Positions 13,183 to 58,501 of a stretch of 64,000 nt of DNA are shown one piece after another (position 1 is the first letter of the stretch; each line of letters begins with the position of its first letter). Both the position numbers and the translations under genes were made by a program. The notes beneath the pieces were generated by a model that ran no database searches, was not told where the DNA came from, and saw only the letters and a program-made list of their open reading frames with translations. Source of the stretch: Escherichia coli (GTDB taxonomy: Bacteria; Pseudomonadota; Gammaproteobacteria; Enterobacterales; Enterobacteriaceae); NCBI RefSeq assembly GCF_011045215.1, contig NZ_CP049201.1; one strand, given 5' to 3'.

Positions 13183-13267
13183 GCCGAAGTGGCGAAATCG
13201 GTAGACGCAGTTGATTCAAAATCAACCGTAGAAATACGTGCCGGTTCGAGTCCGGCCTTCGGCACCA
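13183..13267 (+). tRNA. leuX: tRNA-Leu (anticodon CAA)
   Basis: 85-nt sequence GCCGAAGTGGCGAAATCGGTAGACGC...TTCGAGTCCGGCCTTCGGCACCA with CAA anticodon loop, long variable arm and encoded CCA end. Confidence 0.93.
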
Positions 13268-25259: not shown

Positions 25260-26405
25260 CTATAAACGAATTTTTATCGCCTTGTTTAAAGGTTTCATTG
25301 CGTAGATATTTGAGAAGGTCGTGTGTGTTTTGTGAAGAATGGTCTTACCAAAGCTTCTCAGAAGCTCGATGTAATGCTTTATGGAAGCAAGCCACTCTAC
25401 GAATCTGAGATGCTTTTGCCGTTGTACTGCATTTTTTTGAAGAATCTTTCCTACGATTTCGTTTCGTTTGTCTTCTCTAAGCCGTAATTCCAGTTCTGCA
25501 ATTTTTTCAACGATACTTTCCTTTCTCTCAGTGGTTTTCAACACTGTTGCAGGAGCAGGAGCAGCAGGTTGGTCTTTTGTCGATATGTCGCTTCGTAGAG
25601 CTTCTAAGTGGTCGGGGTTGTAGTTAAGCCGATTACTGAGATTTGCCCAGGAGTAGCTCTTGCCCAATTGTGAAGCTTTGAAAGCTATGCCTGTGTATTC
25701 GAAAGAGAAGCCGTTCATTTTACCGGTAGAGGCAATATTGGCCTTCCAAGATACTTCAGCTTCTTCCAGCCTCTTGATAAAAGTTAGAAGGTCCGGCTTA
25801 TCAGATAAACTTTTATCAAGTATCTGCTGCAGAGCTTCTCTTGGTGAAAGCACCCCGGTTCGTTCCGATAGCATTTTCTCATTACGGGACACTCTCTTCC
25901 GCTTCGGTTGTGCTTGCGAGGGGGGAGATGCAGTTTTGGTCACTGTCAGGCCATGAGCGATTTCGAGTTTACTGATGATCTGTGTGCTGATGAGGTTTTC
26001 GTTCCTACCCAAGTAGAGCTTCCCACCATTGAGATCTATGCGACTTGCGATAATGTGTATGTGCTGGCCATCGTCGTCATGAAGCACATAGCAACGAAGG
26101 TGAGTATCCCTGAACCCCATCCTCTTCATGTAGTCATCTGCGATAATGGACCACTGTTCATTCGTTAGTGTTTCACCGTCGGGTAAGCGAAGTGAGTTGT
26201 GCCAAACGGGTTTTGCGACATCTAGGCGAAGATGCTTGGTGCTATCGAATTCAGCGATCATTTCAACGGCTGAATCACTTAACATGTTCCCGCCAATGAC
26301 GACTGGATCGCTTTTGTGGTGTGCTCCCGATTGTAATACATAACGAACAACACCAGCGAAGCTCTTACCCCTCTTGATCTTCCGCATACCCTTCACGAGG
26401 GACAC
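25260..26405 (-). CDS. Relaxase (MobA/VirD2-type mobilisation nuclease)
   Basis: 381 aa; three-histidine motif HDDDGQHIHII typical of the relaxase/mobilisation nuclease domain; overlaps the upstream mobC-like gene. Confidence 0.75.
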   Translation of the reverse strand: MSLVKGMRKIKRGKSFAGVVRYVLQSGAHHKSDPVVIGGNMLSDSAVEMIAEFDSTKHLRLDVAKPVWHNSLRLPDGETLTNEQWSIIADDYMKRMGFRDTHLRCYVLHDDDGQHIHIIASRIDLNGGKLYLGRNENLISTQIISKLEIAHGLTVTKTASPPSQAQPKRKRVSRNEKMLSERTGVLSPREALQQILDKSLSDKPDLLTFIKRLEEAEVSWKANIASTGKMNGFSFEYTGIAFKASQLGKSYSWANLSNRLNYNPDHLEALRSDISTKDQPAAPAPATVLKTTERKESIVEKIAELELRLREDKRNEIVGKILQKNAVQRQKHLRFVEWLASIKHYIELLRSFGKTILHKTHTTFSNIYAMKPLNKAIKIRL

Positions 26406-26885: not shown

Positions 26886-28049
26886 TTAAGGATGATCTAT
26901 TGAAACAAACTTTTGACTAAACTCCAGCCATCTTGCATTATCAACATCCTTCACAAAAGCAATCAGACCTGCGACATGATTGTAAAAGCCAATTGGAGAG
27001 TCAAATTTTTCATGTCTTGCAACTTCTGAGAGACCAAATTTTTTTATTGAGTAAAGGTGGCGTTCAATACGTTTATAAGTTTGTTTAGATAATCGAGGGA
27101 CATTGCCATCAACAAGTAATCCTAAAACTATTTTTTTTGAACCAGGTCCAGCTACTCTTATTTTGCTTACGTTTTCTTTGAAATGGTGCTTACGAATGAT
27201 GCTGATAATGTTATTTTGTATTTTTCCAACCGAAACACCGTCGGGTAGAGTACCACCGCAGGATAATGTTATATCATCAGCATATCGAGTATAAGTGAAG
27301 CCATATTTATTAGCATATTCAGATAGAGAAATATCTAACTTTACAGTGGCTAAATTACTAAGCATTGGGCTACTCGGTGCCCCTTGAGGTAGCACTCCTA
27401 ACGGCCATGGTTCTGATATGTCCCAAAAAAGGCTCTTCTCTTTATTTTGTCCGTAAAGCTTATATTCCTTAGTTGAGTGCTTAGGAACAGAAATTAGAGA
27501 TTGTAAATGTTGTGGTAAACGTATAGTTGTGCATAGCCTTGATAGTTCAAATGCTATTAATGGCCGATATCCAGCATTTTTAAAAACCATATAAACATCA
27601 GATTCATTTATTGAATAAAAGAAATCGGAAATGTCGAATTGGAAGAGCCATTTAGCACCACAATGCTGTTCTGCACATTTTCTGATGCCACCATTAGGAT
27701 GGAAAGCAAAAGAAGTATTATGGGGAACTAACTTTTTTAATATTTCACTATTGATGAAATGCTGTACTTTAAATATCTCGCCAGTTACAGCATGAATATG
27801 GCGTCTTCCACCTGAACGTTTTTTTATAGCAAACATGCGATAATTTGCTGATTCACGGCGGCGTGATACAGTGGATCGTAGCAAGCGATAATCAACACCA
27901 GTAATTTTTGAAAGATGGCGTAATGTAAAAATTACAGGGAGATTATTTTTCTTCAGATTACTTGCATAATTTCTTAAGTTTAGAGCCTGTGTCTTCCCTA
28001 AGGATGACTCTGCATTTTGATAAAGTTGGTGTGCTGACCAGATTTCCAT
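26886..28049 (-). CDS. Reverse transcriptase, retron-type or defence-associated
   Basis: 387 aa; motifs FDISDFFYSI, LPQGAPSSP, catalytic YADD, and a thumb-like KIRVAGPGSKKIVLGLLV; no maturase, endonuclease or other extra domain. Confidence 0.85.
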   Translation of the reverse strand: MEIWSAHQLYQNAESSLGKTQALNLRNYASNLKKNNLPVIFTLRHLSKITGVDYRLLRSTVSRRRESANYRMFAIKKRSGGRRHIHAVTGEIFKVQHFINSEILKKLVPHNTSFAFHPNGGIRKCAEQHCGAKWLFQFDISDFFYSINESDVYMVFKNAGYRPLIAFELSRLCTTIRLPQHLQSLISVPKHSTKEYKLYGQNKEKSLFWDISEPWPLGVLPQGAPSSPMLSNLATVKLDISLSEYANKYGFTYTRYADDITLSCGGTLPDGVSVGKIQNNIISIIRKHHFKENVSKIRVAGPGSKKIVLGLLVDGNVPRLSKQTYKRIERHLYSIKKFGLSEVARHEKFDSPIGFYNHVAGLIAFVKDVDNARWLEFSQKFVSIDHP

Positions 28050-28237
28050 TCACCTATCCTTTGAGCCCAGGGGGCCATCAGTGTCATACATTTTCCGAGT
28101 CCTCGATGGCCGTTAATGTATGACATTGAAGGGCGGCGTAGCCGCCTTTGCGTCAGATCTTTCCAGAGATGTTTCTCCAACATCCCCATCCGTTGTAACA
28201 AAAGCCACAACAGATTCTGTCAAACAAGCGGTGAACT
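28050..28237 (-). ncRNA. Candidate structured non-coding RNA upstream of the reverse transcriptase (possible retron msr-msd)
   Basis: 188-bp intergenic region with an 11-bp perfect stem (28082-28092 with 28115-28125), an interleaved 7-bp stem (28073-28079 with 28105-28111) and a GGCGGC-gta-GCCGCC hairpin (28132-28146). Confidence 0.35.
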
Positions 28238-29458
28238 TCACTCATCATTGTTTAACGGCTGAACGGAGTGCTGATCAGCACACCAAGACTCTGGAATGTA
28301 AAGACCAAAATCCCATACACTATCGTTTTTAACATGCCTAGAATTTACAAGTATGTCAAGTCCGAATTTAGATAATCGTTTTTGAGTTGTCAATAGTCCT
28401 AATGTCTCTGCATATATGAGTAGTTTTTCTACATACGAACAATCAACATTCAAACGTAAGGCAATGCTTTTGTTATCTCTGACACCTCTTTTTATAAGTT
28501 TTAGTAAATTTATAATTTCGGGAGATAAAGATGAATGGGGGGAAGTGTTATGCTTTGTTCCATTTTCTAACAAGGCAAGCAGCCATCCTGGAATTGCTCT
28601 ATCAGGCATTAGTCCTTGCCATTTTTTATTAGAAAACCATAGTATTCCAGGAAGGTTATTAGGGACGCTATGATAAAAAATTATATTAGATAAAACATTA
28701 CCATAGCCAAGACGAGCCCATGGAGGAATTTTGGTTTGATTTTTACAAAGATTGATTATTTCATTATACTGCTCACCCCACCGAGTTTCTAACCAATTTT
28801 CATTATATACGATGTTACTTATGAAATTGATTTTTTCAGATTTTCTATATTTTCTTACTCCATGGTCTGAGCCGCGAATAGTATTGATTATTCTATTTTC
28901 AGAACCTAGTGTTCTGGCGAAAGAAATTAAAGTTAATCTTACTAGTCCTAAACTCCACCAACTTAAAAAGGTAGGGTTATCGAGCATGGCATTAATAAAT
29001 CCGGATACTCTATCACCACTACCAATCGAATCATCAATAAGTAAAAAATCGTTGACTTTAGATTTTTTCAGATCATTGAGTGATGGATGATCTAAAAACA
29101 TAGTTTTATTAGACCGCACAAGGTTTGAAATAATTGAATATACTAAGTCTTCGCTACCTTGCGAATGACCTGGTCTATTAACAACATCACCATTAAGGTC
29201 CCATAATACTTGTTTGTCTGGATCTAATTTGCGAACTGAATAAAGGGCATAATTTTTATTTTTTGGTAAATCAGAAATGCTCTTTTGAAGCCATATGGTA
29301 AACTCATCTCTACTTACAAAAGTTAACTTGCTCAAGATGTTTTTTGCAATCGCTTTTTGGCTGCTATTAAATTGCATAAGCCATTGAGCTATTTCCTGAG
29401 AGGATTCAATTTTTTCTACTGAAAGTATTTTAAATTTAGGTTTGTCTCTTGTTTTCAT
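28238..29458 (-). CDS. Phosphoribosyltransferase-like protein with a C-terminal helix-turn-helix region (candidate effector)
   Basis: 406 aa; PRPP-binding-type motif FLLIDDSIGSGDRVSG in the N-terminal half; HTH-like KSIALRLNVDCSYVEKLLIYAETLGLL near the C-terminus. Confidence 0.65.
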   Translation of the reverse strand: MKTRDKPKFKILSVEKIESSQEIAQWLMQFNSSQKAIAKNILSKLTFVSRDEFTIWLQKSISDLPKNKNYALYSVRKLDPDKQVLWDLNGDVVNRPGHSQGSEDLVYSIISNLVRSNKTMFLDHPSLNDLKKSKVNDFLLIDDSIGSGDRVSGFINAMLDNPTFLSWWSLGLVRLTLISFARTLGSENRIINTIRGSDHGVRKYRKSEKINFISNIVYNENWLETRWGEQYNEIINLCKNQTKIPPWARLGYGNVLSNIIFYHSVPNNLPGILWFSNKKWQGLMPDRAIPGWLLALLENGTKHNTSPHSSLSPEIINLLKLIKRGVRDNKSIALRLNVDCSYVEKLLIYAETLGLLTTQKRLSKFGLDILVNSRHVKNDSVWDFGLYIPESWCADQHSVQPLNNDE

Positions 29459-30643: not shown

Positions 30644-31519
30644 TTATAAATGATCTCCAATGTGAGCAATAGCGATTTGTGCCGGTCTATCAGGAATTCT
30701 ATTAAAGAAGCCAAAGTATATTCTATTGTAGTAATAAGTTCCTTTTCGATTAGTATTGTCCATGTATTCAAGTTTATAATGGAATTCACAATTCACGTCT
30801 TTATAGATACAATCACCCACTTTAAAATCACGTTTTAATTCCCCTATGGCTCGTTTATTTTTGCCTCCACCTTCTGGTGTTACAAGATAAGGTAACGATG
30901 AATTCATAATTCTAATGTTATGTTGTGAGTCATTAGGTATAATTGTATAGTTATTAACAAAATAAAGAAATTCAGTGATGCTTTTCAAAAAATTTTCATA
31001 TCCACCTTCAATTTTCCTAATAAAATTAAAGGTTTGTGGTGGGTTATCCAAAAAAATGACATTCTTGAAAATGTTTTTAATATTGTCAGCATATTCATCA
31101 CAATCCGATGGGAATTCATCAAGGATTTTCTTAGAAAGATCAATTATTTCACTTTCACTAGAAACTGTATTATCCTTTTTTAAAGGTATGTCTGGAGATT
31201 GATAGGCACAGAGTTTTCTTTCGGCAAGTATCGATGGGGATGTATTGATGATATTTAGAAGTTCATTGCAGCCTATTTCATCCAATAAACTAATTTGGCC
31301 TATTTTATAATACTCATTAACAAGGCCACCGTAATCAGGGTTTGTTGAAAATAATTTAGTGACAAATTTTCCATCAAATTCATTGGAGCGAAGAAACTTT
31401 ATAAAATCTGAATCCACTCTCTCTACAAGTGCTTTAAGATCTTTAATCTGGTTAAAAATCTTAATTTGTTCTTCTTCAAGAGAAAAACTATCTATGAACA
31501 AGCAAACACCTGCTTTCAT
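30644..31519 (-). CDS. Hypothetical protein (third gene of the DUF262-ATPase operon)
   Basis: 291-aa ORF starting 9 nt after the ATPase stop; no confident motif. Confidence 0.55.
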   Translation of the reverse strand: MKAGVCLFIDSFSLEEEQIKIFNQIKDLKALVERVDSDFIKFLRSNEFDGKFVTKLFSTNPDYGGLVNEYYKIGQISLLDEIGCNELLNIINTSPSILAERKLCAYQSPDIPLKKDNTVSSESEIIDLSKKILDEFPSDCDEYADNIKNIFKNVIFLDNPPQTFNFIRKIEGGYENFLKSITEFLYFVNNYTIIPNDSQHNIRIMNSSLPYLVTPEGGGKNKRAIGELKRDFKVGDCIYKDVNCEFHYKLEYMDNTNRKGTYYYNRIYFGFFNRIPDRPAQIAIAHIGDHL

Positions 31520-31528
31520 GAAATCCCC

Positions 31529-32680
31529 TTAATTTTCAATATCAGGAGTATTAAATGATCCTGTCATAATGGTATACATATCAATTGATTGCTGGTCAAA
31601 GAATCCTTTCGGCCAACTAGAAAGTTTTCCATCTTTGCCAATAGATATCTTTTCTGCAGTAGATTCATTATTCTCATGTGAAATATAAAATAACGAAATT
31701 AGCTCAGGTGAAAAGTCAGGAGATGTTCTTGCTACGACACGGATTCCGTTGAGAAGGTGATCGCTATGAGTTTCTATGAATACCTGTACTCCCGCTTGAG
31801 CAGTGTAAGCTATTAATCTACCCATATAGCTTTGTCCTCTAGGGTGCAAATGGGCTTCCGGGTTTTCTAAAACTACTAATTCGCCCGGTTTTGCTAAAAG
31901 TAATGCTGAAACAATACTCAAAGCATAGCTATAACCAAAACCAATGTTTTTGGGTTTAGTTTGTTTTCCTGACTCAGCCTGTATTGTGTTATAAGCAATG
32001 TTTGCACTAACTTCCAATTTTGGCTGTATTTTATAATTTGGGGATATTTCATCCATCCATGCCTGTATATTATTCGCAACCCTTACATTATTATAATTAT
32101 GATGTATTCTTGGGTCGTCTTTATTTGGATTACCATCTTTCAGTATTAGTCTATCTTGCCTATTCATTATATTGTCTAATACTTCGATGACATATTCACC
32201 TTTTTTCCCCAACCAATCGCTATGAAAATTGTGTTGTGATAAAGAAATATTGTCTCTTGGACCAATACGTTCGGCTTCAATATATTGAAAATTACTTGCA
32301 TGTATAAAGTTTTTAATTGTTTTAATGCTATCCATACCTGAAATACATGGAAGTTCATTACGAAGATTTGCTGAGTCCTCTTGTGTAACCCCCCAACTGA
32401 CTTCACATTCTTTAACTGAAAGAGTGATTTTCAGTTGATCATCATCTGAAATAAAGTCATTAATAATATCGTCAATACGACCAATGTTTATCAGTTCACC
32501 ATTTAACTTTATATCATTTTTACTACTAAAATCAGACTGTAACACCATACCTATGGCTTGCATTACTGTACTCTTACCGACAGAGTTATTACCACAAAAT
32601 ACATTTAGACCTGACAAATCAAAAGATTGCTCTTTGTATGATTTAAAATTTTTGAGTTTTATCGATTTAATAGGGAGCAT
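31529..32680 (-). CDS. ABC-type (AAA_21-like) ATPase
   Basis: Walker A GNNSVGKST near the N-terminus; LENPEAHLHP Walker B/D-loop region and ETHSDHLL H-loop near the C-terminus; ATG sits 3 nt after the upstream gene's stop, with a GAGGG ribosome-binding site. Confidence 0.75.
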   Translation of the reverse strand: MLPIKSIKLKNFKSYKEQSFDLSGLNVFCGNNSVGKSTVMQAIGMVLQSDFSSKNDIKLNGELINIGRIDDIINDFISDDDQLKITLSVKECEVSWGVTQEDSANLRNELPCISGMDSIKTIKNFIHASNFQYIEAERIGPRDNISLSQHNFHSDWLGKKGEYVIEVLDNIMNRQDRLILKDGNPNKDDPRIHHNYNNVRVANNIQAWMDEISPNYKIQPKLEVSANIAYNTIQAESGKQTKPKNIGFGYSYALSIVSALLLAKPGELVVLENPEAHLHPRGQSYMGRLIAYTAQAGVQVFIETHSDHLLNGIRVVARTSPDFSPELISLFYISHENNESTAEKISIGKDGKLSSWPKGFFDQQSIDMYTIMTGSFNTPDIEN

Positions 32681-32682
32681 TA

Positions 32683-34599
32683 TCAATTACCCTCATTAGC
32701 ATTAACAATCTTAATGCCTGTGCTTTGTTCAAGAATTTTCGCAAAAGAATTGAATCTATATAATATAGTTATTTTCTTTCCTGTTGAGGTAGAGATAGAG
32801 TCCTTAAACCCTCGCTCTGCTTCAATGTAAGTCTGTGAATCCCATGTGGCATATTCTTTTGAATTGCTATCAATAGCAGAATAAAGGGTATCAACCAATT
32901 TATCAGAATTTTTCAGCAATAACTCTTCTTGTTCCTCAGTAACATAATAGAAATAGTAAATTATCACTTCATAAAGTTGCTTACTTATAGGTGATGTATT
33001 AGAGCCAATCTCTTTTATGAAAGCTAAATCACCGAAAACATCATAGGCGAGGTTTAAAGCCCTCAAATATTTTCTTTCTATTTGAAGATACTCGTTGCAT
33101 TCATTCGAAATGTACGCACTTCCTAAATCTATTTCTTTTTCGTTTAATAAGTTTAATTTATATAGATTTAAGTTTTCCATGGCTTTTGATAAAAACTTAT
33201 CATAGGAATTAAAATTATAATTTTTAAAGCCAATATTTATAAATGCAAGAGCAGCAAGGCAAAGCTCCATATCCTTTTGTCTATCAGGCTTAACCTTACC
33301 ATGCGTTGCTTGTTTGAATTCGTTTTTGGATGCCAGATACCGTAAAAACTTAACACTTGAACCTTGATTCAGGGCCGAACGAATTTCTTGATCACTTAAC
33401 TTAACACCATATGTATTGATACGGTGGAATAATTCAACTATGAGATCAGTGCTATCTTTATTCATTTCTATAAAGTAAGCCGTGATTTCATATTCTCTTA
33501 TGGCTCTTTGTTCAGTGCGAGTAAGCTCACCAAACTCTTTACCATTTAAATCCTCAAGGATATCAAGTTTAGAAAGTTTAAATTCTCCACTCATAAAATC
33601 ATAAATTGTTGTGATCCGTTGTAAACCATCAACAACGACCCACTTATCTTCTGCGATTCGATTACCAAAATAAAATACAGGAAGTGGGAGTTTTAAGAGA
33701 ATAGACTCGATTAATTTAGACTTCTTCTCATTATTCCAAATACGATCTTTTCTTTGGAAGTCAGGTTGTAGTTCAATATCACCAAAATGAACCCGATCAA
33801 AAATGAGAGATAAAACCGGAGTCTTGGAGGTAATTCTTGCAACACCAAGTTTAGCTTGTAGAGTTTTTAATTCCAAGTTCAACTGTGATGATGTTGTATC
33901 ATTTTCACCCTCATCTACTCCATAAGTATTGGGTGACTCTATAAGTTCTTCTACAGTAGTATTATTACTAATTTTTAATGTTGGCACCTCTATATTATAA
34001 TCAAGAGTCACAACTGAGTTAGCCATATCTGCGGAAAGCTCTTTAAATCTATTAAGAGTAACCTCAACCATTTTTGAAGCAATTTCAGATGGGAATTTCT
34101 TCAAAACTATTTGATAAGCATCATCAAGGCTTTGAACTAATTCAACCTGCTGTTCATAAATTTTCCCAAGATTCAAATTGAGAAAATTATCAATTTTTTT
34201 TCTTAAAACCCTAAATTCAGAGCCTTGAACTTCTGATAATGTCGCTGCTTCATGGACATTATGACTACGCAATAACAGGTGTTTTTTGTTTTCATACTTG
34301 AAATGTTGAATATAGGGTAAGTTAGCAAATATTGTTTCTGGTTGGTTCCTGCTCGAAGAACTACCGTAAAGAACCTGCTCTACATTACAAAAACCTCTAA
34401 TATTTAAATTGCTGTAAATCGATTCAAGCTCTGATAATGAACGTGTTTTAGATTCAGAATTAGAAGAGACTTTATATTTACCGTTTTCACGATCAATGCT
34501 TATAATACATAGTGGAGGCGTAGAAGGATTAATTGGCTGTAGCTGTTTGCCAAAAAGAAGATTTTCGATGTCGTTTAGCACTTGTTCAAAGTTAAGCAT
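32683..34599 (-). CDS. DUF262 (ParB-like nuclease fold) domain protein
   Basis: 638 aa; central QPDFQRKDRIWNNEK...VVDGLQRITTI matches the DUF262 IPxFQR and DGQQR signatures. Confidence 0.7.
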   Translation of the reverse strand: MLNFEQVLNDIENLLFGKQLQPINPSTPPLCIISIDRENGKYKVSSNSESKTRSLSELESIYSNLNIRGFCNVEQVLYGSSSSRNQPETIFANLPYIQHFKYENKKHLLLRSHNVHEAATLSEVQGSEFRVLRKKIDNFLNLNLGKIYEQQVELVQSLDDAYQIVLKKFPSEIASKMVEVTLNRFKELSADMANSVVTLDYNIEVPTLKISNNTTVEELIESPNTYGVDEGENDTTSSQLNLELKTLQAKLGVARITSKTPVLSLIFDRVHFGDIELQPDFQRKDRIWNNEKKSKLIESILLKLPLPVFYFGNRIAEDKWVVVDGLQRITTIYDFMSGEFKLSKLDILEDLNGKEFGELTRTEQRAIREYEITAYFIEMNKDSTDLIVELFHRINTYGVKLSDQEIRSALNQGSSVKFLRYLASKNEFKQATHGKVKPDRQKDMELCLAALAFINIGFKNYNFNSYDKFLSKAMENLNLYKLNLLNEKEIDLGSAYISNECNEYLQIERKYLRALNLAYDVFGDLAFIKEIGSNTSPISKQLYEVIIYYFYYVTEEQEELLLKNSDKLVDTLYSAIDSNSKEYATWDSQTYIEAERGFKDSISTSTGKKITILYRFNSFAKILEQSTGIKIVNANEGN

Positions 34600-38168: not shown

Positions 38169-39098
38169 TCACCCCCTAAAAACCTCATTCCGATGCCACT
38201 CCACAAACCCCTCATAAGGGTAATTTTTACGCACCTGCGGCAACGCAATAGTTTTCCCGTCAAAATCCCAGAATAATCTCTCAACGATCCCTCCGCCGTT
38301 TACCGCATCTGATACCAGTACCCGCATATTTTCGTCCAGGCCAATCGATCCTTTATCAAAGGCTTTATGGTGAATTGCGCAAAGCGCCAGGCCATTAGGA
38401 ATTTCACAAGGACCGCCGTGCTGTTTCCATTTTATATGCGCCGCTTCCAGCGCGACGGTGGTGTCGTCGTGGCGCATATTAAAGCCACATATCGCGCACT
38501 GGTAGTTATAAGCGCGTAATACATTTTTGCGAAATAACGGGTCGCGCTGTTTACGGATTTGCTGGAGATCAAAACCCAGCTCGTCAGCAATTTCTTCCTG
38601 AATACTCTCGGTGAAGTGCGCTTCGAGTATCTGTTGCGCCAGAGTATTGATGAGTTTTTTATTGCCTGTTACCAGGGCGTAGTGCTGTTCATCGAAACCG
38701 CCTGCAACGTGGTATTCGTTCAGTTCCTTCACTGGCGGTTGTCGGCTGCTACCTGCTGTTGAGCAAAGCTCGGCATTGTGTAATTGCCAGAATCCGTCGC
38801 CTTGTAATCGCCAGAACGGCATATCAGGTCGGTACTGTGAACGCTGTGGCCCAAAACGTTCCAGTAAATTGTGCAGAGGTTCGTAGATTTCCGATCCATA
38901 ATCGAAAAGGCGCGGATGCCCATTCAGGTATCCCGCTAATACGTATAGCAGTAACAATGGTTTATGCGGCGCGCGCTGTTCACCCTTGTGCCAGATTTTT
39001 ATATTGGCAATTGCCTGCTGTAGCGATTTACTGGAAGCCATTGATATCCCTGGCAGTGAAATAATTGCGATCATGCTCGCAAATTTTCTGCTGTTCAA
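38169..39098 (-). CDS. HNH endonuclease-domain protein
   Basis: 309 aa; C-terminal YQCAICGF...AAHIKW...ALCAIHH HNH motif; N-terminal domain of about 200 aa unassigned. Confidence 0.7.
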   Translation of the reverse strand: MNSRKFASMIAIISLPGISMASSKSLQQAIANIKIWHKGEQRAPHKPLLLLYVLAGYLNGHPRLFDYGSEIYEPLHNLLERFGPQRSQYRPDMPFWRLQGDGFWQLHNAELCSTAGSSRQPPVKELNEYHVAGGFDEQHYALVTGNKKLINTLAQQILEAHFTESIQEEIADELGFDLQQIRKQRDPLFRKNVLRAYNYQCAICGFNMRHDDTTVALEAAHIKWKQHGGPCEIPNGLALCAIHHKAFDKGSIGLDENMRVLVSDAVNGGGIVERLFWDFDGKTIALPQVRKNYPYEGFVEWHRNEVFRG

Positions 39099-39835: not shown

Positions 39836-40816
39836 TCACCTTTCGCGCCAAAACTGCAAAATTGCTTCTACAAACTTGTCAGAAATAATCCCCCGACGGG
39901 CTGCCGCGCTGAAATGACTGCTTCGCAGTGCCGTCGTCCAGTTCTCCGGTGACCGGTACGCTGAACCGTAATATCCCGTGCTTAAATCGTCCGGATCTTC
40001 ATCAGGCGCGTTCGTCAGTCCTCTTTCACCTTGTTGCTGGAAGTCGACGAAAATAATATTGGCTAAAACATTATTTTGATAATTGCCATAAATAGCTTCA
40101 TACGCATGAGGGAAATTTTCTTTCCAGTACCAGGTGGTATCGCCGCAAAACCACGGCGCATCAGTAATATTATTAAGCTGAGAATGGTATTGTTTTAGAT
40201 CCCTACGAAAGGCTTCAACCATATGATTAAAGTGTTGAGGGTGTGACGCGTAGTCACTGGTCATTAAGTCAAATTCGCCTTGCATCCAGCATACGCCGAG
40301 GAATTTGTTCTGCGGATTTTTTGCCAGTGCGGCTCGCGTTCTGCTGACTAAATCCTGGTACAGCGGAGTATCCGTTCCCCAACGACAAGCATCATGGCTG
40401 GCTCCGTGCCGTTCTGAATATGTCCCCTCGCTGCCAGCGGTAAAAGCCGATCCGCCACGGCAACACGGAACGATGAGAACCCCTGCGTTATCAGGAATAA
40501 AGGGCAGTAATTTCCGTGCAATATGCAGTGCCTGGCCAACGGTGCCGTACTGTGTTTGATGATTCGTTGCCAGAGGATGGTGATAACCCTGCATATCCTG
40601 AACATCGTGTGGGCAGTGAGTCAGTGGAATAATGTCGTTAAAGTGACATGACGGGCCTCCGGGATGCGTATGCGCAAATCTCGCTAATTGTTTAATTCTG
40701 GGATGAGGCGCATCTTCCCTGTCCGGTAATGGCAGTCCTTCGCCATACGCCATAGCATTAGACTGACCAGCAACGGTAAGAACAAAGTAATAATCAGGCG
40801 ATATTATTGCGTTCAT
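39836..40816 (-). CDS. nanS: 9-O-acetyl-N-acetylneuraminate esterase
   Basis: 326 aa from the internal Met; SGNH-hydrolase GQSN motif; matches K-12 NanS/YjhS. Confidence 0.9.
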   Translation of the reverse strand: MNAIISPDYYFVLTVAGQSNAMAYGEGLPLPDREDAPHPRIKQLARFAHTHPGGPSCHFNDIIPLTHCPHDVQDMQGYHHPLATNHQTQYGTVGQALHIARKLLPFIPDNAGVLIVPCCRGGSAFTAGSEGTYSERHGASHDACRWGTDTPLYQDLVSRTRAALAKNPQNKFLGVCWMQGEFDLMTSDYASHPQHFNHMVEAFRRDLKQYHSQLNNITDAPWFCGDTTWYWKENFPHAYEAIYGNYQNNVLANIIFVDFQQQGERGLTNAPDEDPDDLSTGYYGSAYRSPENWTTALRSSHFSAAARRGIISDKFVEAILQFWRER

Positions 40817-40880: not shown

Positions 40881-41987
40881 TTAGTTTTGTACTGTGGCTT
40901 TATTATCCTTCACAGAGATCAAAACTGAATCCGTCACCGCTTTGCCGCCTGCAGTTTCACCGCCAATAATCAATAGGCTATTATTCCAGGGCAATGATAC
41001 TCCGTAGGCCCGACCTTGCGACAATTCGCCCGATTTATCCCATTTCCCGTTATGCCAAAGATGAATATCAGCGCTATATGATTTTTTCAGGCCTTCATGC
41101 GCATAGTTCTTACCGTTTTGGTAATTTTCTCGTGAACCTTTGAATCCGGCCCCTCCGGCAAATATCAGTGAGTCATTGCTCATGCCTGCAAAACCGCCAG
41201 CGACGCCATCTGGTGATGAGACGGGAGCAAGCTTATTCCATTGTAAATTATTATCGGTGAAATCAAGTTCAAATACGGCATCCGTTCGCAATCCTGGTTT
41301 GGCTTCGCCATTAATAAGCCAGGTTATATCACCTTTATTCACAACCGCCGCACCAGCCGTCCCGTACCAGGGAGATTCGCCAGCGTAACTCCATTGCTGT
41401 GTTGAGGGATCAAAAGACAATAGAAACTTATTGAAGAAATAATCTTCTGCTTTTTTGTCAAAATAGTGGGCGTTGATTTTATCTATAGCGGTTGAATCTT
41501 TTCCAGCTTCGTTGAGATCTTCAAAATAGCCATTGAAGATATTCTGGTTAACACCGCCAGTAACATAAGCCTTGCCGTTGTGTACAAAAGTCACATGGCC
41601 CGCCATGCCCATCGGCGCGTGCGACATCAATTTAACCCAGCTATTGGTTTTGGGGTTGTATTTGTGTACGTCATTAAATACCTGAGTCAAGCCCTCGCTG
41701 TTTTTGCCAATGCCGCCAAACACATACAGATTGCCATCAATAAATGCAGAGGTTGCTTGATCTCTTGGTCCGCCAGGGAATGCAGCTAACGCTGTCCATT
41801 TTTTATCTTTGGCCTGTGTATCCAGCTTGTACCATGCCGTACCTGCGCTACCTAAACCAATGTAGACAGTGTCGTTATCAATTGCTCCGGTACCACTTTT
41901 AAATGGCACAGGAGTTTCCGGTAATACAGACGCGTTTGCGGCAAATGAAGCCATCATGATAGCAAGCGCCGTTATTGTTTTATTCAT
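40881..41987 (-). CDS. nanM: N-acetylneuraminate epimerase/mutarotase
   Basis: 368 aa from the internal Met (MNKTITALAIMMASFAANA signal peptide); Kelch-repeat protein matching K-12 NanM/YjhT. Confidence 0.9.
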   Translation of the reverse strand: MNKTITALAIMMASFAANASVLPETPVPFKSGTGAIDNDTVYIGLGSAGTAWYKLDTQAKDKKWTALAAFPGGPRDQATSAFIDGNLYVFGGIGKNSEGLTQVFNDVHKYNPKTNSWVKLMSHAPMGMAGHVTFVHNGKAYVTGGVNQNIFNGYFEDLNEAGKDSTAIDKINAHYFDKKAEDYFFNKFLLSFDPSTQQWSYAGESPWYGTAGAAVVNKGDITWLINGEAKPGLRTDAVFELDFTDNNLQWNKLAPVSSPDGVAGGFAGMSNDSLIFAGGAGFKGSRENYQNGKNYAHEGLKKSYSADIHLWHNGKWDKSGELSQGRAYGVSLPWNNSLLIIGGETAGGKAVTDSVLISVKDNKATVQN

Positions 41988-42006
41988 TGTGACTGTCTCC
42001 TGTCTA

Positions 42007-42723
42007 CTACAGTTTAAATGACACACCAATGCGATAACTGTTTTCCGATAAATTATCTCTGCCGTTGTAAACACCCTGACGGTCAAGGTAGTCATATTCT
42101 ATGTATGGCGTAATATCGGGCGTCATATGGTATTGTAGAACAAATGCATTTTCCGTCGCCCATTTCTTATGGTTTGCATAGCGATAATCGTTCTGTTTGC
42201 TGTATAGCGTCGTTTGCCATGCGAAGGTGAAATCACTATTAATATGGTAAGTGACATATCCATCCCAACGATGAACGTTATCACGAGACATATCACCGGA
42301 TAAGTCTTGTTGTCGGTAAGCTTTCCAGTCGTAACGATAGCGAATGCCAAAATTAAGATCTTTTGTCGCGTCCCAGGACAGTTTTACGTAGGGTCCGTAG
42401 CGTGTGCCGTTGCTGCTAAAATGCGTTAACATTCCCGGGCGCACCGTCCATTGATCATCAAGTTTAATTGCGTAATTAACTTCAACCTGAACATCATTGA
42501 GTGCGGCATTTTCCTTTTTATTATCATGAATGGTATTCCAGGTATTACTTTCCATGCTTGCCCACCATCCATTTTGCCATCCCTCACTGACTTTGAGTCG
42601 AGTCTCATAGGCGTGGCTTCCACTACGATATCCACCACGTACGTCCAGTGTCGCAGCCTGAGAAATTAATGGTGACGAAAAGCACAGTAATAATACGCCA
42701 GAAAGTATTTTAGCCTTTTTCAT
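42007..42723 (-). CDS. nanC: N-acetylneuraminic acid outer-membrane channel (KdgM family)
   Basis: 238 aa from MKKAKILSGVLLL; signal peptide and beta-barrel pattern; matches K-12 NanC. Confidence 0.9.
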   Translation of the reverse strand: MKKAKILSGVLLLCFSSPLISQAATLDVRGGYRSGSHAYETRLKVSEGWQNGWWASMESNTWNTIHDNKKENAALNDVQVEVNYAIKLDDQWTVRPGMLTHFSSNGTRYGPYVKLSWDATKDLNFGIRYRYDWKAYRQQDLSGDMSRDNVHRWDGYVTYHINSDFTFAWQTTLYSKQNDYRYANHKKWATENAFVLQYHMTPDITPYIEYDYLDRQGVYNGRDNLSENSYRIGVSFKL

Positions 42724-43140
42724 AAATTTCACTCATTTGTAGGATACAGAAAGCAATACAAAGCCCGCATAAACAATTAGCATTTATGTTGTGTAATATT
42801 TTTTTGCCAGGCTTATAGTGTCTTTGGCAACCGGTAGCTGTATTTTATATTTTTTGTATAAGGTCTCCTGTGAAAAATCTCTTTTCACATTATTTAAATA
42901 AACAGAGAGCCAGATTAAATATCTGAGTATAAAATCTCTTCTGATGTTTAATTGATTTGAATGTTCGTAAGCTATATCACTTACTCAATCCATTTTACCC
43001 AGAGTCATAAAATAGAATGTCTGTTGATCTCATTTTCATATTCCTTTCAGACTGAAGTGCGTTTTCATCACCCGATGAGAAAGAACTGAAGTGATGTTTG
43101 CCATAGATTACGAGATGCCCTGTCTCATTGACTATCTTGG

Positions 43141-43164
43141 TGCACCTTTATACCTGTTATACCA
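43141..43164 (-). promoter_or_regulatory. Candidate NanR operator in the nanC-fimB intergenic region
   Basis: Minus strand reads T-GGTATA-aca-GGTATA-aa-GGTGCA, closely resembling the nanA operator GGTATA hexamer repeats. Confidence 0.6.
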
Positions 43165-44178
43165 GATCAAAAATCACGCAATCCATACAACAAAACCAGA
43201 TTTGCAATTCGTGTCACAAAATATGTCGATCTTTTTCTAAGAAGAAGATGCCATGTGAAGCCAGCCGAACACTTGCGGTGGTTTTCAAAAACCAAAGATT
43301 ATTGTTTAGTTATCTGTTTTATATGTGATTTATTTAGGATCTAAACAAGGGAAGCTTTGCAAGTTAACTCAGTGGGTGTGGTGAAAATAAGTGTTTACCC
43401 GCCATCAGGCTGAGCATAATTCTCATCATGAAATATGTTTCCTGGTTTGTGGCTTGTAACTGGTCACTCCTGAAGTCGATCTGGAGAGGCTTGTTGATGT
43501 TGGTGTTTTCAGGGTGATGCCTCACTTAGTTTGTTTGCCGTATCGCCCGGCGAACAGCTGTGATTGAGGAAGGTTTAAGTCGTAGTGACCAAAGCCATAT
43601 TTACCAACGGATGCAGATGAAAAAATCGTTTCCTGCTTTCCCCCATATCTCCATGATAAAAAGGAATGTAACAATCTCATGGCCTAAACTGACGAACCAG
43701 CCAGGAATAATCGCTAGGGACCTAAGAATTAGCATGATAATAGCCACTAAGAAATTACTGCGTTCCATGAAATAGCCATTTTGTGGCAAATGGAGTTGAC
43801 TAATAATGTCATATGTGAGACGGCTAGTTGAACGAATATTAAATTTTGCTGAATTTTTTATGTTGATTTTACTTGTTACAGAACATATCACATGATATAT
43901 AGATAAGATTAGTTGCATTAATGATGAGGGTTATTATTAGATTCGTATCAGATTGATAAATATATAAAGGTACATAGCATGCAAGAGCATAGCGTTTGTA
44001 TGGCAACGTTATTATAATTAACTGTTGCTACTCCATTTAAGTTCACTCAGAAGAACTGGTCCACTTACGTTAGTTATTAAGCAAACGTTCGCTTTTATAA
44101 ACATAATCAGGATAAAAATGTTGGATTATTGCTAACCCAGCACAGCTAGTGCGCGTCTGTAATTATAAGGGAAAAACG

Positions 44179-44781
44179 ATGAAGAATAAGGCTGATAACA
44201 AAAAAAGGAACTTCCTGACCCATAGTGAAATCGAATCACTCCTTAAAGCAGCAAATACCGGGCCTCATGCAGCACGTAATTATTGTCTGACTTTGCTTTG
44301 TTTTATTCATGGTTTCCGGGCGAGTGAAATTTGTCGATTGAGGATTTCGGATATTGATCTTAAGGCAAAGTGTATATATATCCATCGATTAAAAAAAGGC
44401 TTTTCAACAACGCACCCGCTATTGAACAAAGAAGTTCAGGCTTTAAAAAACTGGTTGAGTATCCGTACTTCGTACCCGCATGCTGAGAGCGAGTGGGTAT
44501 TTTTATCGCGTAAGGGTAATCCGCTTTCTCGGCAACAGTTTTACCATATTATCTCGACTTCCGGTGGTAATGCCGGGTTGTCACTGGAGATTCATCCGCA
44601 CATGTTACGCCATTCGTGTGGTTTTGCTTTGGCGAATATGGGAATAGATACGCGACTTATCCAGGATTATCTTGGGCATCGCAATATTCGTCATACTGTC
44701 TGGTATACCGCCAGCAATGCAGGGCGTTTTTACGGCATCTGGGATAGAGCCAGAGGACGACAGCGTCACGCTGTTTTATAG
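44179..44781 (+). CDS. fimB: Type 1 fimbriae switch recombinase FimB
   Basis: 200 aa from MKNKADNKK; tyrosine recombinase; matches K-12 FimB. Confidence 0.95.
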   Translation: MKNKADNKKRNFLTHSEIESLLKAANTGPHAARNYCLTLLCFIHGFRASEICRLRISDIDLKAKCIYIHRLKKGFSTTHPLLNKEVQALKNWLSIRTSYPHAESEWVFLSRKGNPLSRQQFYHIISTSGGNAGLSLEIHPHMLRHSCGFALANMGIDTRLIQDYLGHRNIRHTVWYTASNAGRFYGIWDRARGRQRHAVL

Positions 44782-45258
44782 AGATAGTTGAGATACCAGG
44801 GATGGTGTTAAAAACTACATTATTCTTACGATATATCAAAAATGATTAACCATTTATTAATTGATGTTATTGTAAGTATAATTCTTAATTATCATAATAA
44901 ACATTAAGTTAACCATATCCATACAAAATACAATGGTTTATGTTCTTCAAAATAAATAAACAAAATCATTCATAAATTTACACATCACTTAAATTCTCCT
45001 GTTTTCGCACTTTTTTCTTTATTTTTTAAGCAACTGGAAGTTAATCCACTGCAATCTATTGTTATATTGAATCAAATCAATGAAAATAGATGTTGTCACA
45101 TCAGTGATATTTTATTTTTGTATGATATTTAATGTAATTGACTGATAGCCACATCACTTCGTGTGTGGTTATCTTTTTATCTATTGGGCTAATTTTGACC
45201 GATTGAGGTTTCCTATAGGTATTCATTCAAATATATCTCAGTTAGGAGTACTACTATT

Positions 45259-57727: not shown

Positions 57728-58501
57728 ATGAAATCTGCCACCTCTGCGCAAAGACCTTACCAGGAAGTCGGGGCGATGATCCGCGATCTGATCATAAAGA
57801 CGCCGTACAATCCTGGCGAACGGCTGCCGCCGGAGCGTGAAATTGCAGAAATGCTTGATGTCACGCGGACGGTGGTACGTGAAGCGCTGATCATGCTGGA
57901 GATCAAAGGGCTGGTGGAAGTGCGCCGGGGTGCCGGTATCTATGTTCTTGATAGCTCAGGCAGCCACAACACAGACAGTCCGGATGCCAACGTCTGCAAT
58001 GATGCGGGTCCTTTTGAGCTGTTACAGGCGCGTCAGTTACTGGAAAGTAACATCGCCGAGTTTGCCGCCCTGCAGGCTACCCGCGAAGATATCGTCAAAA
58101 TGCGTCAGGCATTGCAACTGGAAGAGCGTGAACTGGCTTCCAGTGCGCCGGGCAGCAGCGAAAGCGGTGACATGCAGTTCCATCTCGCTATTGCCGAAGC
58201 AACGCATAACAGCATGCTGGTGGAGCTGTTCCGTCAGTCCTGGCAGTGGCGGGAAAACAACCCAATGTGGATCCAGTTGCACAGCCATCTGGATGACAGC
58301 CTGTATCGCAAAGAGTGGTTGGGCGATCACAAACAGATCCTCGCCGCGTTAATCAAAAAAGATGCCCGAGCGGCGAAGCTGGCAATGTGGCAGCATCTGG
58401 AAAACGTTAAGCAACGTCTGCTGGAATTCTCGAACGTTGACGATATTTATTTTGACGGCTATCTGTTTGATTCATGGCCGCTGGATAAAGTCGACGCCTG
58501 A
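57728..58501 (+). CDS. uxuR: GntR-family transcriptional repressor UxuR
   Basis: 257 aa; N-terminal GntR-type HTH and FadR-like C-terminal domain; matches E. coli UxuR. Confidence 0.95.
   Translation: MKSATSAQRPYQEVGAMIRDLIIKTPYNPGERLPPEREIAEMLDVTRTVVREALIMLEIKGLVEVRRGAGIYVLDSSGSHNTDSPDANVCNDAGPFELLQARQLLESNIAEFAALQATREDIVKMRQALQLEERELASSAPGSSESGDMQFHLAIAEATHNSMLVELFRQSWQWRENNPMWIQLHSHLDDSLYRKEWLGDHKQILAALIKKDARAAKLAMWQHLENVKQRLLEFSNVDDIYFDGYLFDSWPLDKVDA

Follow-up and report, generated by a model that had tools for sequence, protein, structure and literature searches.

As shown in Table 1, the window, by which the whole 64-kb stretch of DNA analysed is meant, is a piece of Escherichia coli chromosome in which the sialic acid operon nanCMS and the recombinase gene fimB, with fimE beside it, flank a spacer of 1,455 bp that runs from the nanC ATG at 42723 (minus strand) to the fimB ATG at 44179 (plus strand). 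Searches with the K-12 proteins (tblastn) placed nanC, nanM and nanS on one side of this spacer and fimB and fimE on the other, which bears out the intergenic position that an earlier sequence-only reading of the same DNA had proposed for the hexamer motif described below, and the RefSeq annotation of near-identical genomes agrees with the nanCMS and fimB calls. The arrangement is widespread in the species: with a 1.7-kb query around the site, the nanC-fimB region was matched in 5,109 of 5,426 complete E. coli genomes. The nanCMS operon is intact and lies downstream of the motif on the same strand, the motif being oriented toward the sialic-acid operon. Neither nanR nor nanA, which belong to a distant locus, was detected in the 64-kb window with the K-12 proteins (tblastn), and an Rfam scan of 42000-44800 at E ≤ 1 gave no match, so that no known RNA element lies in the long nanC leader or in the fimB leader.

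Table 1. Features of the nanC-fimB region and related sequences; coordinates are those of the 64-kb window.
Feature	Coordinates	Strand	Basis or remark
Further NanR-like hexamer pairs	23661 and 30936		≤1 mismatch per hexamer
nanS	39836-40816	-	tblastn, full length, 97.9% to K-12
nanM	40881-41987	-	tblastn, full length, 98.1% to K-12
nanC (sialic-acid outer-membrane channel), first gene of nanCMS	42007-42723	-	tblastn (42723 to 42010), full length, 100% to K-12
NanR-like hexamer pair GGTATTccaGGTATT	42532-42546	+	inside nanC, operator spacing
Conserved promoter-operator block, 97 bp	43139-43235	-	GATC, CRP/NagC-like site, GATC, operator
NanR operator (O_NR), very probable	43141-43163	-	sequence, uniqueness, K-12 identity, fimB +1 mapping
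Repeat 3, degenerate	43141-43146	-	GGTGCA
Repeat 2	43149-43154	-	GGTATA
Repeat 1	43158-43163	-	GGTATA
Extended -10-like TGGTATAAC, overlaps repeat 1	43156-43164	-	same 9-mer at all three K-12 operators
Dam GATC, 1 bp from repeat 1	43165-43168		GATC listing; TTGATCT-GGTATA junction also at K-12 nanA, nanX
CRP-like site TGTGA-cacgaa-TTGCA	43203-43218	-	centred 47 nt upstream of repeat 1
Second Dam GATC, flanks CRP/NagC-like site	43228-43231		within invariant block
SlyA operator O_SA2, CTAGGGACCTAA	43714-43725	+	PMC3173223 sequence found in window
SlyA operator O_SA1, TTAGCATGATAA	43729-43740	+	PMC3173223 sequence found in window
fimB (type 1 fimbrial switch recombinase), distant operator target	44179-44781	+	FimB 100% to K-12 (tblastn, 44179 to 44778)
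fimE	beside fimB		FimE 99.5% to K-12 (tblastn)

On the far side of nanS, an island some 26 kb long comes after the tRNA-Leu(CAA) gene leuX (13183-13267), ends at nanS and stands in place of the K-12 KpLE2, gene and island together covering 13183-39830 of the window; since the island replaces KpLE2, nanX/nanY and their NanR operator are missing, and a second full operator of the nanX/yjhBC type is correspondingly absent from the window, nanXY lying outside it. The island carries a relaxase fragment (25260-26405) and a type III-A retron-like gene pair at 26886-29458 (minus strand), which consists of a reverse transcriptase at 26886-28049 (PADLOC RT_III-A, E=6e-160) and a PRTase-CE + wHTH effector at 28238-29458 (PADLOC PRTase_III-A, E=2e-93), both on the minus strand. 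It also holds a three-gene defence-like cluster at 30644-34599 (minus strand; PADLOC NsnC, NsnB and NsnA with E values of 6e-94, 1e-110 and 2e-115, respectively), with an AAA_15/DUF3696 ATPase and a GmrSD_N (DUF262) protein among its domains, and further along an HNH protein at 38169-39098. Downstream of the fim operon, a GntR-family paralogue that is 29% identical to NanR is encoded at 57761-58408 (plus strand); because of this placement it is probably uxuR, and it is not the regulator of the site considered here.

Read directly from the window, the minus strand from 43163 to 43141 is GGTATAACAGGTATAAAGGTGCA, that is, GGTATA-ACA-GGTATA-AA-GGTGCA, 23 nt in length, and the plus strand at 43141-43163 is tgcaccTTtataccTGTtatacc. 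This is exactly the hexamer series that the sequence-only reading had picked out; of the interval it gave, 43141-43164, the start is right and the end runs one base too far, taking in a T at 43164 that flanks repeat 1 and is conserved ahead of NanR operators. At least two direct GGTATA repeats 2–3 nt apart are required of such an operator, and here they are present as the GGTATA-ACA-GGTATA pair at 43149-43163 (minus strand); canonical operators carry three repeats, and here the third, GGTGCA, follows in register after a 2-nt spacer and is identical to GGTATA at 4 of 6 positions. With up to 3 mismatches allowed, the 23-mer matches the 64-kb window once and none of 100 dinucleotide-preserving shuffles, and the tandem GGTATA-N2-3-GGTATA was observed once in the window against 0.01 expected. 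Lone GGTATA hexamers are at chance level in the window (28 observed, about 31 expected), and because single hexamers occur at this frequency, it is the tandem arrangement that is a real signal. When up to one mismatch per hexamer is tolerated, nine other NanR-like pairs appear in the window; none of them has a third repeat, and they are therefore regarded as background. One of them, GGTATTccaGGTATT, is found inside the coding part of nanC in antisense orientation, some 190 bp from the ATG of that gene, and is probably a chance occurrence given nine comparable pairs in the window.

In K-12, O_NR has been described as lying around 760 bp upstream of fimB (McVicker 2011, PMC3173223), and in the same work the SlyA operator O_SA2, CTAGGGACCTAA, spans -194 to -183 from the fimB +1 (PMC3173223). 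Since O_SA2 is anchored in the window (Table 1), the fimB +1 falls on A43908; a TTGTTA-16-TATATA promoter stops 7 nt short of this base, and the mapping is thus self-consistent. Counted from the mapped +1, the motif occupies -767 to -745, at that end of the published range which is farther from fimB, so that the published NanR site does not lie elsewhere; agreement with the footprint reached in this manner is indirect. Between the motif and the two start codons lie 417 bp on the nanC side and 1,015 bp on the fimB side, close to the approximately 420 bp and 1 kb that had been estimated before. Compared with K-12 MG1655, the window shows zero differences over 43123-43222 and almost none from there toward nanC.

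It has been reported that genomic SELEX with purified NanR yields a peak in the nanC/fimB spacer (PMC5934670, PMC4797297), and that NanR is not displaced from the nanC/fimB site when Neu5Ac is present, a behaviour reported for that site only (PMC5934670). Horne et al. 2021 counted nanCMS as one of three operons with the operator and showed that three NanR dimers assemble cooperatively on (GGTATA)3, that a two-repeat oligonucleotide has the same KD as three repeats but forms only two complexes, and that Neu5Ac weakens the binding of NanR to (GGTATA)n (PMC8012715). NanR operators at nanCMS and yjhBC were also described by Vimr 2013 (PMC3658417). Westphal et al. 2016 found that NanR binds at most 5 bp from a GATC upstream of nanA, nanC and yjhB, and that the methylation of these GATC sites changes over time (PMC5155068). 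NanR raises fimB transcription from about 755 bp away, and it does so independently of SlyA (PMC3173223). The K-12 identity, the published position, the SELEX data and these operator reports support the link to NanR control of nanC and fimB drawn in the sequence-only reading, and the motif is very probably O_NR, the nanC-fimB intergenic operator of NanR, a sialic-acid repressor of the GntR family. The O_NR found here is already known, since it does not differ from the operator of K-12, which was characterised in work from 2003 to 2021; a true regulatory site had been recognised from the letters of the DNA.

Among complete E. coli genomes, a 130-bp region was found in 5,099 of 5,426, and the exact 45-mer 43141-43185, which comprises the operator, the GATC and 17 nt upstream, in 4,549 of the 5,426, with another 519 genomes matching it at 95–99%. 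In six E. coli chosen to span the identity range, a single SNP in O157 is the only change within 43139-43235, and both flanks contain SNPs. The 20-mer GGTATAACAGGTATAAAGGT was also scanned against one genome per species (GTDB), a design in which conservation inside the 20-mer is fixed by the search and the flanks are free to vary. There were 90 matches, about 87 of them in the nanR-nanA intergenic region, where the core mostly lies 30–39 bp ahead of the nanA ATG; the genera include Citrobacter, Enterobacter, Kluyvera, Raoultella, Rahnella, Buttiauxella and Hafnia, together with Salmonella arizonae and others. At these approximately 87 nanA loci, positions 4-6 of repeat 3 read ATA (45), ATG (21), ACA (16), CTA (3), AGG (2) or other triplets, and in 86 of the nanA loci the TCT ahead of repeat 1 is at least 90% conserved. 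At nanC, the third repeat of E. coli E69 is GGTACA. Since repeat 3 varies both at nanA and at the nanC of E69, GGTGCA is within the natural tolerance of the third repeat. The site is nearly fixed across E. coli, and the nanA-type operator is common to many enterobacterial genera; the nanC-type context was seen in the GTDB species scan only in Escherichia-derived contigs. Two matches carried other names, namely a contig of an uncultured Bacteroides MAG with the E. coli nanC-fimB operator and a 100% FimB, and a 265-bp contig labelled Methylobacterium with an E. coli nanX-type operator; contamination of the two assemblies by E. coli DNA is the probable explanation.

In K-12, the nanA, nanC and nanX sites have TTGATCT in common immediately upstream of repeat 1, and in all three the repeats read 5' to 3' toward the regulated gene. 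The Dam GATC sites of the window adjoin the NanR operator and the CRP/NagC-like site. A CRP-like sequence of the form TGTGA-N6-T(C/T/A)(G/A)CA is also common to all three sites; it is centred 47 nt upstream of repeat 1 at nanX, as in the window, and 46 nt at nanA, and its half-sites are moderately conserved in the 86 nanA loci. Because the GATC, TGGTATAAC and the CRP-like site are shared by the three sites, the element is regarded as a promoter-operator module. The CRP-like site of the window presumably coincides with the published NagC operator O_NC1, the putative CRP/NagC assignment following Condemine 2005 and Sohanpal 2004, and an AT-rich palindrome seen by eye near 43416-43436 is taken to be a second NagC-like site. 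The distal control region of fimB consists, in order, of O_NR, O_NC1, an IHF site and O_NC2.

The nanA operator of K-12 ends 35 bp before the ATG, and the nanA promoter must therefore be at the operator; TGGTATAAC is only about 50 bp before the ATG there. By homology with nanA, the nanC and nanX promoters would likewise be at their operators, with leaders of about 410 nt. For the window we infer that TGGTATAAC may be the -10 of the nanC promoter, which would give a nanC leader of about 405–410 nt, and that the operator would overlap the nanC -10 and transcription start site. Published accounts disagree, placing the operator either inside the nanC promoter or upstream of it (PMC8012715, PMC3658417), and a literature search for a published nanC start site returned none that was usable. 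In a scan of 42700-44200 for consensus sigma-70 promoters, nothing was found at the operator, and there were fewer matches than in shuffles, for which reason the promoter/terminator scan is uninformative; TGGTATAAC was not flagged because the sixth base of the -10 has to be a T for the scan to call it. Within the spacer, the sigma-70 consensus was matched best by TTGGCA-16-TATATT at 42824-42851 (plus strand; 10/12), which points to fimB and lies only about 100 bp past the ATG of nanC; TTGGCA and TATATT also form a predicted constitutive promoter in PMC3946193.

The following mechanism may be proposed, in which NanR binding, the effect of Neu5Ac and fimB activation at the operator are taken from the literature. 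Toward nanC, the module would consist of the CRP-like (probably NagC) site, the Dam GATC, TGGTATAAC over repeat 1, and repeats 2 and 3. As long as sialic acid is absent, dimers of NanR would assemble cooperatively on the direct repeats; the two perfect repeats should suffice for nanomolar binding, and a third dimer would probably be held more weakly by the GGTGCA repeat. Bound NanR is predicted to cover the nanC promoter and start site and to shield the GATC next to repeat 1 (43165-43168) from Dam, and from about 755 bp upstream it would also increase fimB transcription. When Neu5Ac binds NanR, the hold of the protein on DNA would be loosened; nanCMS would then be induced, and fimB expression would fall, with less OFF-to-ON switching of type 1 fimbriae as a result. 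The operator would in this manner couple free sialic acid, a host inflammation signal, both to the uptake of sialic acid through NanC and to the FimB-driven phase variation of type 1 fimbriae, which is relevant to colonisation of the gut and the urinary tract.

Part of this scheme depends on the third repeat. It is conceivable, if unlikely, that only two NanR dimers bind the operator, GGTGCA being no functional repeat, so that cooperativity and induction would be unlike those at nanA. Repeat 3 departs from GGTATA at 2 of 6 positions; a two-repeat oligonucleotide binds with a similar KD in two complexes (PMC8012715), and the retention of NanR with Neu5Ac in SELEX hints at a distinct behaviour of the site (PMC5934670). 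Against this, repeat 3 retains its GGT and stays in register, natural nanA operators tolerate GGTACA, GGTATG and GGTCTA at this position, the nanC site of E69 likewise has a variant third repeat, GGTACA, and GGTGCA is fixed in at least 84% of E. coli, which argues for constraint. A bolder proposal, which we consider improbable, is that the nanC copy represents a functionally distinct operator class, in which the fixed GGTGCA, the abutting GATC and the overlapping CRP/NagC site might keep NanR bound in the presence of Neu5Ac, and in which the spacer allele at 43273-43400 might retune the sialic acid control of type 1 fimbriation in this lineage. If true, such an operator class would explain NanR as a long-range activator of fimB.

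The central spacer is the part of the region in which this strain departs from K-12. Compared with K-12, 43273-43400 shows 20 mismatches in 150 bp, between flanks that are almost the same in both strains. Two GATC sites of K-12, those corresponding to 43297 and 42907, have no counterpart here, and one is gained at 43338. The stretch 43273-43400 is the one that we assume to hold the IHF site between the two NagC operators. Because it diverges from K-12, the long-range influence on fimB could be of another magnitude in this strain. A stronger version, that the site is a genuine NanR operator acting on nanCMS only, with no significant effect on fimB here because of the spacer allele, seems very improbable. 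It has in its favour these mismatches, the GATC sites gained and lost, and a mechanism of long-range activation that is not established in the literature consulted; however, the operator block, the 43416-43436 region, the SlyA sites and the fimB promoter are all conserved, and other E. coli, for example TUM13936, carry the same non-K-12 spacer allele. Work by Sohanpal in 2007 reportedly found that the exact spacing is not critical for fimB activation, which also counts against an effect confined to nanCMS. Finally, a chance resemblance to the nanA operator, for which only the general frequency of single GGTATA hexamers could be cited, is refuted by the shuffles and the conservation tests and has a practically negligible probability, since the match is unique and conserved, thousands of genomes carrying it unchanged between variable flanks, with a 27-nt core that is the same at nanA and nanX and with published NanR binding data (PMC5934670, PMC4797297).

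The assignment to O_NR can be set against the NanR operators of K-12 MG1655, on which the understanding of nanC and fimB control by NanR is based. O_NR is said to have been located in the K-12 nanC (yjhA)-fimB region in studies by Sohanpal et al. in 2004, Condemine et al. in 2005 and Kalivoda et al. in 2013. The K-12 site shares with the window the 23-mer, the flanks over 43123-43222 and the neighbouring genes, and the distances are almost the same, 418 bp to nanC (417 in the window) and 1,014 bp to fimB (1,015 in the window). There is no difference in the operator, whereas the central spacer at 43273-43400 is another allele here, and K-12 additionally carries the KpLE2 nanX/nanY genes with their own NanR operator, both of which are missing from the window.

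The K-12 nanR-nanA and nanX (yjhB) regions were scanned with the same repeat pattern as the window, and both operators read GGTATAACAGGTATAAAGGTATA. The window operator is identical to this sequence at 21 of 23 positions, the two exceptions being bases 4-5 of the third hexamer (AT to GC), so the near-identity to the nanA operator claimed in the sequence-only reading holds, with both differences in repeat 3. The nanX/nanY (yjhBC) module of K-12 is 84% identical to the window over 77 bp (E=7e-21), and its operator-to-ATG distance is likewise long, at 411 bp; outside the 77-bp module, the nanC and nanX leaders have in common only a 28-nt match of 82% (E=0.002), which is unconvincing. Unlike the window operator, the nanX operator has a perfect third GGTATA and no divergent fimB-like target, and it lies in KpLE2, which is absent here. 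With the operator of nanA (nanATEK-yhcH), the window site shares the first 20 nt, the preceding TTGATCT and the orientation to the gene, and the nanC and nanA sites have an exact 27-mer in common. The two nevertheless differ in the third repeat, which is GGTATA at nanA and GGTGCA here, and in their setting, since the nanA operator directly follows nanR and lies close to its ATG, whereas the window operator stands 417 bp before nanC and, unlike that of nanA, also serves a divergent gene, fimB, 1 kb away.
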